Below are positions 25,143-62,578 of a stretch of DNA of 64,000 nt, piece after piece. How positions within the stretch are numbered: the first letter of the stretch is position 1; each line of letters starts with the position of its first letter. The notes beneath the pieces were generated by a model. That model searched no databases. It saw only the letters and a list, made by a program, of their open reading frames with translations, and had not been told where the DNA came from. The translations under genes were made by a program, and so were the position numbers. The stretch is from an uncultured Candidatus Saccharibacteria bacterium (GTDB lineage Bacteria > Patescibacteriota > Minisyncoccia > Phycocordibacterales > DATGWK01): contig CAYHIR010000001.1 in assembly GCA_964356815.1 (NCBI GenBank), positions 32,297 through 96,296 of the forward strand, read 5' to 3'.

Positions 25143-25283
25143 GCGGGGTTTCTCGGATGGTCATCGAACCTAGAATATTATTAGGCCGAAACCGATAATG
25201 TACTAAATACTAGCAAACCCTCGGCAAAAAACAAGTTCAAAAAGCTCGAATTTTATGCTCTGATGTGATAATCTGAAATTTCT

Positions 25284-25345
25284 CCCACCCATAGCTGTTT
25301 TGGTAGAAATCAGCAAGTTCCCACCCATAGCTGTTTTGGTAGAAT
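25284..25345 (+). repeat. Two tandem degenerate copies of the tRNA-Lys 5' half (CCCACCCATAGCTGTTTTGGTAGAA), 36–41 bp period, immediately upstream of the tRNA-Lys gene
   Basis: 25284..25308 and 25320..25345 match tRNA-Lys positions 1-24 except that CAGTTGG is replaced by GTTTTGG. Confidence 0.7.
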
Positions 25346-25361
25346 TACAGAAAATTAATAT

Positions 25362-25434
25362 CCACCCATAGCTCAGTTGGTAGAGCAGGTGCCTCTTAAG
25401 CACTTGGTCGCAGGTTCGAGTCCTGCTGGGTGGA
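25362..25434 (+). tRNA. tRNA-Lys (anticodon CTT)
   Basis: Acceptor CCACCCA/TGGGTGG; D-arm AGCTCAGTTGGTAGAGC; anticodon stem GGTGC/GCACT with loop CTCTTAA; T-arm GCAGGTTCGAGTCCTGC. Confidence 0.8.
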
Positions 25435-25589
25435 CACGAGGTAATTTGTGCTCATAATCTCAAAAAGATAAACGAGTGGCCGCCCAGAGAACATGCCTTG
25501 AGGCATGTGCGTCAGGACGAGAAAGGCTTTTCGTTATCGAGCGAGCCTTTGGCGAAGCGAGATCGAAAAGCACCTGCGGCGGTAGCCGA

Positions 25590-25607
25590 GAGTCCTGCTG
25601 GGTGGAC
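25590..25607 (+). repeat. 18-nt direct repeat of the tRNA-Lys 3' end (GAGTCCTGCTGGGTGGAC), att-site-like
   Basis: Exact copy of 25418..25435, located 155 bp downstream of the tRNA. Confidence 0.65.
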
Positions 25608-49466: not shown

Positions 49467-49496
49467 TACCGATTTTTGTGTTAATCTAGCGTTCTC

Positions 49497-49519
49497 GGGC
49501 GGTTAGCTGTTTTGGTAGG
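49497..49519 (+). repeat. Degenerate copy of the tRNA-Val 5' half (GGGCGGTTAGCTGTTTTGGTAGG) 17 nt upstream of the tRNA-Val gene
   Basis: Matches tRNA-Val positions 1-23 except that CAGTTGG is replaced by GTTTTGG. This is the same substitution seen upstream of tRNA-Lys. Confidence 0.65.
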
Positions 49520-49536
49520 TAACGCTAAAAAATCAC

Positions 49537-49612
49537 GGGCGGTTAGCTCAGTTGGTAGAGCGCAACATTGACGTTGTTGATGCCAGAGGTTCGAGTCCTC
49601 TACCGCCCACCA
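49537..49612 (+). tRNA. tRNA-Val (anticodon GAC), CCA encoded
   Basis: Acceptor GGGCGGT/ACCGCCC; anticodon stem CAACA/TGTTG with loop TTGACGT; T-arm AGAGGTTCGAGTCCTCT; ACCA 3' end. Confidence 0.85.
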
Positions 49613-52809: not shown

Positions 52810-52847
52810 GAAATATGATTAAGTCGACAATATATATCTAGTAACGG

Positions 52848-52920
52848 TGCCGAGGACCGGGCTCGAACCGGTGACCCCATGCTCTTCAGGCATATGCTCT
52901 ACCAACTGAGCTACCTCGGC
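52848..52920 (-). tRNA. tRNA-Phe (anticodon GAA)
   Basis: Minus reading: GCCGAGG UAGCUCAGUUGGUAGAGC A UAUGC CUGAAGA GCAUG ... CCGGTTCGAGCCCGG ... CCTCGGC A. Confidence 0.8.
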
Positions 52921-53047
52921 GTTGCGTAAACTTCTGATTCTGCGGTGACCGGAAATTTCTGCTGAAATTTCCTAACCCTCGGCCTCTTCGGCCTGCGTAG
53001 TCAATTCAAAACTTTAATTTACTCTCGCGGACGAACTAACCATACCA

Positions 53048-62077: not shown

Positions 62078-62151
62078 ATTATTTTATTGTGTCTAATTAT
62101 AACCCGCGACTGACAAAACAAAAACCCGCTTTAGACGGGTCTTTGTTATTT

Positions 62152-62578
62152 GTTTGCTTGTGTCTATAAGCCGAATTCTGTACTCCACGATCACCGCCGA
62201 AGCGGTGCCGCTAAGCGATAAACATTTATCTGCCCTGTGAGTTACCCCACGGGTCAAGCGACTCTTTTTTCCAAAACAGCAGTTTTTATTCTGAAGTTTC
62301 AAAAAAACTCGGTCTTGCACTTAGGTAAGGATTTGGCCGTTTCACCTCGAAAATTACTTTTCGAGCTCATCCTCGAATCGAGGATGCCTCCCCCATTTCG
62401 GGTTCGGCGTCTCTGTTCGCACCTCGCAGATTGCTCTGGACGGGCGTTACCCGCTACCCTCCTGCCGTGACACCTGCGGAAATATTTCTATTTCCACCAC
62501 GCCACGACAAGTGTTCGGACTTTCCTCCCACATCGCTTGTTGCCAAGCTTTGTAAGCGTTTACCCGACACAAGCTAGA
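62152..62578 (-). ncRNA. rnpB: RNase P RNA (bacterial type)
   Basis: Minus-strand reading gives CR-I GGGAGGAAAGUCCGAACAC (reverse complement of 62510..62527), a CR-IV-like ACAGAAUUCGGCUUAUAGAC near the 3' end, P1 complementarity (GCUUGUGUC at the 5' end / GACACAAGC at the 3' end), and an intrinsic terminator ACCCGUCUAAAGCGGGUUUUUG downstream. ORFs 62093..62320 and 62237..62470 overlap it and are rejected. Confidence 0.75.

Follow-up and report, generated by a model that had tools for sequence, protein, structure and literature searches.

Short, stereotypically edited copies of tRNA 5' ends recur upstream of tRNA genes in Patescibacteria

We analysed a 64,000-nucleotide (nt) stretch of contig CAYHIR010000001.1 from an uncultured Candidatus Saccharibacteria bacterium (hereafter, the window), in which short partial copies of a transfer RNA (tRNA) gene—here called decoys—lie just upstream of two intact genes, tRNA-Lys(CTT) and tRNA-Val(GAC). 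Each decoy repeats the beginning of the tRNA that it precedes and then departs from it by the same three-base edit in the D-loop. We show that these decoys belong to a real family that is restricted to the Patescibacteria lineage (the candidate phyla radiation, CPR) and is conserved at an orthologous locus. Tentatively, and with somewhat less than even confidence, we read them as a cis-acting leader or promoter-proximal module, made from the tRNA's own 5' end, that would tune transcription and 5' maturation of the tRNA behind it.

The window contains two such arrays, with the following features:

25266..25274, forward strand: candidate extended -10 promoter (TG-a-TAATCT), read from the sequence, with its hexamer ending 10 nt 5' of Lys decoy 1.
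25285..25309, forward strand: Lys decoy 1, comprising CCACCCATAGCT (equal to tRNA-Lys nt 1-12), GTTTTGG and TAGAAA.
25321..25345, forward strand: Lys decoy 2, comprising CCACCCATAGCT, GTTTTGG and TAGAAT.
25362..25435, forward strand: tRNA-Lys(CTT), the gene behind the two decoys, with periods of 36 and 41 nt.
49479..49487, forward strand: candidate extended -10 promoter (TG-t-TAATCT), with its hexamer ending 9 nt 5' of the Val decoy and kept in the relative L003.
49497..49521, forward strand: Val decoy, comprising GGGCGGTTAGCT (equal to tRNA-Val nt 1-12), GTTTTGG and TAGGTA, with orthologous decoys in relatives L003 and L004.
49537..49612, forward strand: tRNA-Val(GAC), with its 5' end 40 nt downstream of the start of the decoy.

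At 49497-49519 the Val decoy reads GGGCGGTTAGCTGTTTTGGTAGG, and 17 nt separate it from tRNA-Val(GAC). The original prediction had described it as a copy of the first 23 nt of the tRNA with CAGTTGG replaced by GTTTTGG; the copy and its distance are as described, although it covers 22 nt rather than 23, and the replacement is present as a change of three nt (CAG to GTT) that leaves TTGG as it was. Positions 1-12 and 16-22 are identical to the tRNA, positions 13-15 are GTT in place of CAG, and the two sequences differ from position 23 onward. The two Lys copies (starts 25285 and 25321) each read CCACCCATAGCTGTTTTGGTAGAA and, as predicted, carry the identical replacement: the 14-mer AGCTGTTTTGGTAG has exactly three occurrences in the 64 kb, solely at the two Lys decoys and the Val decoy, and the 8-9 nt ahead of each occurrence repeat the start of the tRNA behind it, which is Lys-CTT in two cases and Val-GAC in one. 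With up to two mismatches allowed, four matches to this 14-mer were observed, against a shuffle mean of 0.46 and with none of 100 shuffles reaching four. At the decoy loci, ARAGORN and Rfam called the real tRNAs alone, with no match over the Lys decoys even at E values up to 10; across the window, Rfam 15 matched only tRNA and RNase P RNA, and the decoys match no described RNA family. Scans for intrinsic terminators and attenuators called none at either decoy locus and found no hairpin 5' of UUUU.

Two scans placed these three copies in a much larger family. The first, using one genome per species, sought AGCTGTTTTGG followed after 27-57 nt by AGCTCAG..GAGC and returned at least 118 stretches; the second, in metagenomes, left positions 12-18 free because the first had fixed the core. 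Among the matches listed, the two scans together gave more than 150 decoy units, nearly all from Patescibacteria, with the same core standing ahead of tRNAs with dozens of different acceptor stems in more than 100 Patescibacteria genomes. In nearly all matches listed from the genome scan, the downstream tRNA begins with the same 8 nt that precede the core. Those with such an acceptor match all come from Patescibacteria or from unclassified metagenome-assembled genomes (MAGs), and the taxa listed include about 40 Saccharibacteria along with many Paceibacterota, Nomura-, Lloyd-, Taylor-, Zambryski-, Yonath- and Woesebacteria. Ten of the matches listed are clearly non-CPR (Bacteroidota, Firmicutes, Chloroflexia, Proteobacteria); none has an acceptor match, and they look like chance occurrences of the core. 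On one contig labelled "Candidatus Nanoarchaeia archaeon" (L089, DATGWK010000060.1), the tRNA-Lys is typically bacterial and has a decoy of the Patescibacteria kind; this contig is probably mis-binned or mis-classified. The argument that one edit at unrelated tRNAs points to a shared cause is thus borne out by this recurrence of the core across acceptor stems, and a motif search beside tRNA genes, which had been proposed as a check, finds it at hundreds of loci and kept in sister genomes. Random duplication or chance is ruled out by the shuffles, the orthologous conservation described below and the family-wide recurrence.

The fetched loci contain 158 copies of the core. For 147 of these, a tRNA starts on the same strand no more than 250 nt downstream; most of the others lie at contig ends. 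Among the 99 tRNAs concerned, 67 have one decoy, 24 have two and eight have three. The decoy-bearing tRNAs are Val, Lys, Ile, Thr, Phe and Met, that is, those with a TAGCTCAGYTGGTAGAGC D-arm. The unit period has its mode at 38-41 nt in this set; in the unbiased metagenome set the mode is 37-41 nt and the minimum 34 nt, where the search pattern permitted 27, and the spacer between a decoy and the next unit or tRNA is A/T-rich and 10-45 nt long. Searches of the accessible literature on the topic and on the motif string returned no description of such units; the 15-mer had no matches, and matches to the 11-mer were primers, including one for the 5' end of E. coli 9S RNA. The arrangement is apparently undescribed. 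At one Paceibacteria MAG locus (L024, decoys CCGCCCGT..), ARAGORN calls the decoy-bearing tRNA "tRNA-Stop(tta)", with a UAA-reading anticodon; it is a suppressor tRNA, the mark of a recoded lineage or the result of an anticodon called in error.

Conservation could be followed at the tRNA-Val locus, where the gene downstream encodes TsaD. This TsaD is 100% identical to one on a Hainich groundwater contig (H41, 0.2 um) annotated as Patescibacteria, and its nearest other relatives have 59-68% identity. Two of these (62-68% identity) have tRNA-Val upstream of TsaD, and both retain a decoy: GGGCGATTAGCTGTTTTGGCAGG in L003, which has GGGCGATTAGCTGTTTTGGCAGGTAACGCC, and GGGCGATGAGCTGTTTTGGTA in L004, which also has another partial copy and whose decoy contains a consensus extended -10 element (TGGTATTAT). 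Relatives L005 and L006 (TsaD 63%) have no tRNA upstream of TsaD and are therefore uninformative. At acceptor position 6 the decoy and tRNA read G and G in the window, A and G in L003, and A and A in L004, so the decoy follows changes in the tRNA with a lag. The decoy family is thus conserved at an orthologous locus, and at a divergence where neutral intergenic DNA should be unrecognisable, which counts against a functionless by-product.

The edit itself is highly stereotyped. Among 81 upstream copies with at most two acceptor mismatches in the unbiased scan, positions 13-17 read GTTTT in 34, GTCTT in 16 and GATAT in two, and 25 are unedited (CAGTT or CAGCT); one further copy has CGTTTT at positions 12-17, with T12 changed to C and GTTTT kept. 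The recurrent edit is G13-T14-Y15, and intermediates are almost absent. The edited core is unchanged even where the real D-loop is CAGCTGG or CAGTCGG, and downstream it has its own consensus, T20-A21-G22-R23-T24-A/C25, where the tRNA has TAGAGC. In a folded tRNA, positions 13 and 22 pair, U8 contacts A14 and R15 contacts Y48; the edit abolishes these D-arm contacts, which may matter in ways that a two-dimensional fold model does not capture. The unedited copies have a complete D-arm, G+C-rich spacers and a poorer match to their own tRNA, and they look like a different phenomenon in other organisms. Such unedited tandem repeats of the 5' part occur upstream of tRNAs in L181, L207, L209, L232, L235 and other metagenome contigs, in G+C-richer contexts; they reach positions 25-37 or beyond and have periods of 29-56 nt. 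Partial 5' copies without the GTYTT edit also accompany tRNAs with other D-arms (L034, Arg-CCT; L053, Cys and Leu-TAG; L078 and L037, Ser; L093, Ala; L109, Lys-TTT), and several of these pair with their own complement as hairpins, for example GCGCCCATATATCCATATAGGCGC in L109.

The acceptor copy behaves differently from the core. Over 147 copies, the 8-nt acceptor segment has no mismatch to the tRNA in 91, one in 26, two in 14 and three or more in 16, and some decoys have up to seven acceptor mismatches with the core intact. Among 59 acceptor differences, 45 are transitions; C-to-T, which keeps pairing with the tRNA 3' strand, is about as frequent (22) as G-to-A, which breaks it (21), which indicates AT-biased decay and not selection for pairing. 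The L045 array has three identical decoys with a common mismatch to the tRNA, and the spacers of an array are near-identical; arrays grow by duplication of whole units. We infer that the units would have arisen when the 5' part of the tRNA gene was duplicated in tandem, and that unequal slippage between the 12-nt direct repeats could make and remove units and refresh them from the functional gene. Such refreshment would explain how decoys track the tRNA without selection on the acceptor copy.

The same observations invite another account, in which 5' duplications, most of them harmful, arise often by slippage, only inactivated copies persist, and survivorship bias rather than any positive function produces the pattern. 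Unit-level duplication and AT-biased acceptor decay agree with it, as do the existence of unedited and other partial 5' copies at other tRNAs and the sporadic occurrence of decoys among eligible tRNAs. However, many different changes could inactivate a copy, yet G13-T14-Y15 and T24 recur from Saccharibacteria to Paceibacteria whatever the local D-loop, and intermediates are nearly absent. At 62-68% TsaD identity the Val decoy is still present, as is part of its spacer, and reverting the edit leaves the predicted misfolding (see below) unchanged. We regard this account as improbable. Decoys share a tRNA-gene origin with tRNA pseudogenes and tRNA-derived repeats; they differ in being tRNA-like over only 22 nt, in their stereotyped 3-nt edit, in co-evolving with the neighbouring gene and in occurring across the superphylum instead of decaying freely.

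We then considered where the units lie relative to promoters and operons. A sigma70-like -10 element ending 8-13 nt before the 5' end was found for 34 of 151 tRNAs without decoys and 13 of 91 distal decoys, and for only 5 of 98 tRNAs behind decoys. Elements of the TGnTA type peak at -9 to -11 from both tRNA 5' ends and distal decoys, and local tRNA genes have extended -10 promoters preceded by a T-tract (for example ttttgTGGTATAGT, and also aaaaaaTGGTAGAGT). Both window arrays are preceded by an identical TGnTAATCT with an upstream T-tract, as is L003 at about 293-301. In eight of 99 arrays the first unit begins no more than 60 nt after a tRNA on the same strand, and in three of these the gap is just 3-10 nt. 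Decoys can therefore occupy operon spacers; units of 47 nt or more often hold a well-placed -10 of their own in the spacer. Taken together, the promoter peak before distal decoys and the placement in operon spacers argue that decoys are most likely transcribed within the 5' leader, between the promoter or upstream tRNA and the mature 5' end. As a separate observation, Patescibacteria tRNA promoters are apparently placed for primary leaders of about 2-4 nt, with an A-T-A-T preference at -4 to -1.

The edited segment also resembles a promoter element. On a position weight matrix (PWM) built from 43 positionally enriched TGnTA promoters, with only free positions scored, decoys average 2.03 bits, real promoters 1.51 (leave-one-out), background TGnTA sites -1.58 and the real D-arm -3.01. 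The full extended -10 signature (TG, one base, TAnnnT) is present in the L004 decoy and in Lys decoy 2, whose 3' part (TGGTAGAAT) is a consensus site that a promoter scan reports as TTCCCA-16-TAGAAT with TG upstream. That the decoy hexamer might serve as a -35 for a promoter farther on was rejected, there being no fixed spacing.

Loss of the D-arm together with gain of a promoter-like segment leads to the leader or promoter-proximal module that we favour. In this model, each unit joins tRNA nt 1-12 to a fixed core (G13-T14-Y15-TTGG-(T)AG-R-T-A/C) and then to an A/T-rich spacer of 10-45 nt. The tRNA genes concerned are single-copy and have a GCTCAGYTGGTAGAGC D-arm, and the units would occupy the stretch ahead of the mature 5' end, bounded on the far side by the promoter or, within an operon, by the tRNA before. 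The units would be transcribed as a 5' leader and cut off by RNase P at the true +1, and selection would act on the linear core sequence and not on the acceptor copy or on a hairpin. The edit turns the D-loop into a T-tract plus a TGnTA segment resembling the local extended -10 promoter, and some copies, such as Lys decoy 2, may act as additional promoters.

A stronger version would make every decoy a secondary promoter, an extended -10 fashioned from the D-loop (TTGGTAGAGC), with the acceptor copy as a passenger and arrays raising the expression of single-copy tRNAs. Several of the data agree with this: local tRNA promoters are of the same type, decoys equal real promoters on the PWM and exceed the real D-arm by 5 bits, GTT ranks 7th and ATA 8th of 64 possible triplets, Lys decoy 2 and the L004 decoy are consensus sites, the lower bound of 34 nt on the period agrees with the closest allowed -10 position, and acceptor decay looks neutral. 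Like extended -10 elements (TGnTATAAT) and the tandem P1/P2 promoters of stable RNAs, decoys combine a T-tract, TGn and TA in repeats upstream of a stable-RNA gene.

Other observations weigh against the module as we have framed it, and those that concern promoter function tell equally against the stronger version. Decoys are sporadic: of 26 other (non-index) eligible tRNAs at these loci only 4 have a decoy, and the tRNA-Phe of the window shows a relic at most, such that any benefit may be small. The invariant G13 fits none of the models tested and is disfavoured by the PWM. The upstream context of a distal decoy may be the ancestral context of the tRNA, in which case it says little on function, and placement in a transcribed leader rests on predicted promoters and operon positions. 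As for promoter function, TAnnnT is present in just 12 of 137 decoys, and the Val decoy (TAGGTA) is among the 125 without it. The last hexamer base is A in 49%, C in 27% and T in 18% of decoys, as against T in 72%, A in 25% and C in 2% of promoters. The GTC variant ranks 48th of 64 on the PWM, and GTCTT places C at -17, where 72% of real promoters have T. About 22% of decoys have GGTTAG spacing, which takes them out of TGnTA register while GTTTTGG is retained. Decoy hexamers lie about 5 nt farther from the tRNA than real -10s, and the modal period is longer than promoter geometry predicts by the same amount; in the modal units of 38-41 nt, decoy position 25 sits 13-16 nt from the tRNA, where the -10 hexamers of tRNAs without decoys end at 8-13 nt and real TGnTA promoters peak at -9 to -11. 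Decoys thus differ from known extended -10 promoters in mostly having no T at -7, in having some C at -17 or a shifted TG-to-TA distance, and in being embedded in a copy of the gene's 5' end. Promoter function accounts for some copies and part of the edit, not for the whole family, and decoys as tandem promoters throughout strike us as unlikely, if worth keeping in view.

The original prediction had raised a tRNA-like leader that must not fold into a D-loop, and had suggested folding the precursor with its decoy. Decoy-paired folds are as stable as native ones in the window (-38.0 vs -37.0 kcal/mol for Val, -50.8 vs -49.2 for Lys) and are the more stable in 80% of 74 loci, under an energy model that omits tertiary structure and always favours the outermost strand. 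These folds would support a switch in which the pseudo-acceptor strand pairs with the 3' acceptor strand of the tRNA and blocks RNase P at the true +1 until resolved. Two published accounts describe leader pairing with the acceptor end as inhibiting RNase P and as engineered into riboswitches (PMC9433436, PMC7897497). Decoys share with the leaders described there a segment able to pair with the acceptor end of the precursor, and differ in that their conserved part is a linear motif and not the pairing segment. Selected pairing with the tRNA 3' strand was rejected on the equal frequencies of C-to-T and G-to-A changes; moreover, decoys with 3-7 acceptor mismatches keep an intact core, and the fixed core itself is left unexplained. 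A folding or processing switch therefore seems very improbable to us. Of the three mechanisms that had been suggested, the tRNA-like leader comes nearest to the data, through its position and the loss of D-arm contacts; that it must not fold finds no support, as reverting the edit in silico does not significantly alter the predicted competition with the native fold over 74 loci. Weakening of the misfold's two-dimensional stability by the edit holds at the window's Val locus and not over those loci (p about 0.4).

Other structural candidates were also rejected. A self-contained hairpin, formed by the acceptor copy and a complement inside the unit, seemed good in minimum-free-energy folds of the window's Val decoy, L003, L042 and L067, but pairing within the unit did not differ between cognate and non-cognate acceptor copies (p=0.49) and no antiparallel covariation was found. 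A hairpin of the core with downstream sequence was weak against shuffled sequences (mean z -0.27, p=0.054) and real only in sub-families such as tRNA-Ile: the tRNA-Ile decoys of L008, L014, L044 and L065 have TTATCTAAACAG(C) after the core and so form a strong 7-bp hairpin (GCUGUUU/AAACAGC) that is conserved in Nomurabacteria, Paceibacterota and Saccharibacteria. Some sub-families thus have a structured decoy; the family as a whole does not. A T-box-like UGGN:NCCA contact would require N20 to covary with the discriminator, which it does not (C20 with A73 in 19; T20 with A73 in 83, T73 in 31 and G73 in 3). Decoys resemble T-box leaders in being leader RNA with a UGGN able to pair with an NCCA end, and differ in lacking Stem I and a terminator and in preceding a tRNA instead of an aminoacyl-tRNA synthetase gene. 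A relation to boxA was dropped, since two rRNA leaders, a very small sample, have canonical boxA-like UUUCCUUGAAAAG and UGACCUUUGAAAUC, unlike the decoy core. Likewise, resemblance to RNase P RNA is by chance: CUGUUUUGG is an arm of an A/U-rich stem and GGUAACGCC an ordinary P8 loop.

That the constraint falls on sequence and not on structure would also fit a leader RNA that is recognised or cleaved at a linear motif, where a single-stranded G plus UYUU is cut by RNase Y or RNase E/G, or read by an RNA-binding protein; a cut would release the pseudo-acceptor strand or start turnover of the leader. RNase Y cuts after G in A/U-rich RNA, and RNase E/G prefers RN|WUU. G13 is invariant, the GTTTT and GTCTT classes both retain U16-U17, and some units occupy spacers between tRNAs, a position that makes sense only for a role at the RNA level. 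The case is one of motif resemblance, however, and would leave the tRNA-like flanks TAGCT and TTGGTAG unexplained, and we think this account improbable to much the same degree as the slippage account, or fractionally more so. More speculatively, a lineage-wide layer of tRNA control can be imagined, in which GUYUUGG in one to three inactivated 5' copies is read by a dedicated factor (RNA polymerase or its sigma factor, an endonuclease or an RNA-binding protein), the pseudo-acceptor competes for the 3' strand, mature tRNA yield is set accordingly, and copy number changed by slippage provides heritable tuning; we consider this conjecture rather unlikely, if slightly less so than the two accounts just compared.

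Finally, the original prediction had named templated repair or integration by a common guide and a selfish element carrying a tRNA 5'-half mimic as possible sources. tRNA genes are classic integration targets, and a copied fragment of tRNA-Lys elsewhere at the locus (25590-25607) shows that fragment duplication occurs there. Integrase attachment-site (att) duplications share with decoys a partial tRNA copy as a direct repeat beside an intact gene, but they span the 3' part of the tRNA (starting in the anticodon loop or T-loop and running to the 3' end) and flank a kb-scale element. Decoys instead copy nt 1-12, lie 34-90 nt upstream with only a spacer of 10-45 nt in between, and carry a fixed core that is not tRNA sequence. 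Their acceptor part is always local, whole units are duplicated together with their spacers, right-hand ends are not conserved and no element body is present. A search for the arrangement in 2.9 million viral contigs gave no matches. Neither proposal is supported by these results; the mobile-element or repair reading is largely refuted, and we give it hardly any weight.

Several other observations concern the window and its tRNAs. The fragment at 25590-25607 (forward strand) is an exact 18-nt copy of the tRNA-Lys 3' end (GAGTCCTGCTGGGTGGAC, tRNA nt 57-74), 155 nt past the gene; it lies 36 nt upstream of tRNA-Leu(TAG) and just 5' of an extended -10-like site (TG-t-TAGGAT), and it could be an old att-type scar or another fragment duplication. 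At 52971-52983 (reverse strand), about 50 nt upstream of tRNA-Phe (52846-52920), GCCGAGGGTTAGG combines the first 7 nt of tRNA-Phe with a decoy-end-like GTTAGG and may be a relic decoy with an internal deletion; this tRNA-Phe has the same D-arm and otherwise no decoy, and Phe tRNAs of other genomes carry decoys. The window's tRNA-Lys at 25362, and tRNA-Lys or tRNA-Ile at many loci, among them L064, L084, L008 and L044, have C1:G72 (CCACCCA.., CCGCCC..) instead of the usual G1:C72. RNase P RNA, at 62151-62575 (reverse strand), is of class A, with large insertions and a score of 102.5 bits, barely over the threshold of 100. In class-A RNase P, the CGGGUA segment of L15 pairs with the 3'-CCA of the tRNA; the window's RNase P RNA lacks this segment, consistent with the absence of an encoded CCA from 10 of 12 tRNA genes in the window (Val and Trp encode it). 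The window also encodes a short IF-2.

Patescibacteria make up a large share of bacterial diversity and have tiny genomes with single-copy tRNA genes, and to our knowledge their gene expression is almost unstudied. In practical terms, the direct repeats formed by decoys can confuse tRNA annotation and assembly, and decoys provide a simple sequence marker for Patescibacteria contigs. They also show concerted evolution of a functional RNA gene and an adjacent non-coding copy. A conserved 25-nt module with a stereotyped three-base edit would give a new handle on tRNA transcription and maturation in Patescibacteria, and if the core turned out to be bound or cleaved, it would help to identify the factor responsible.

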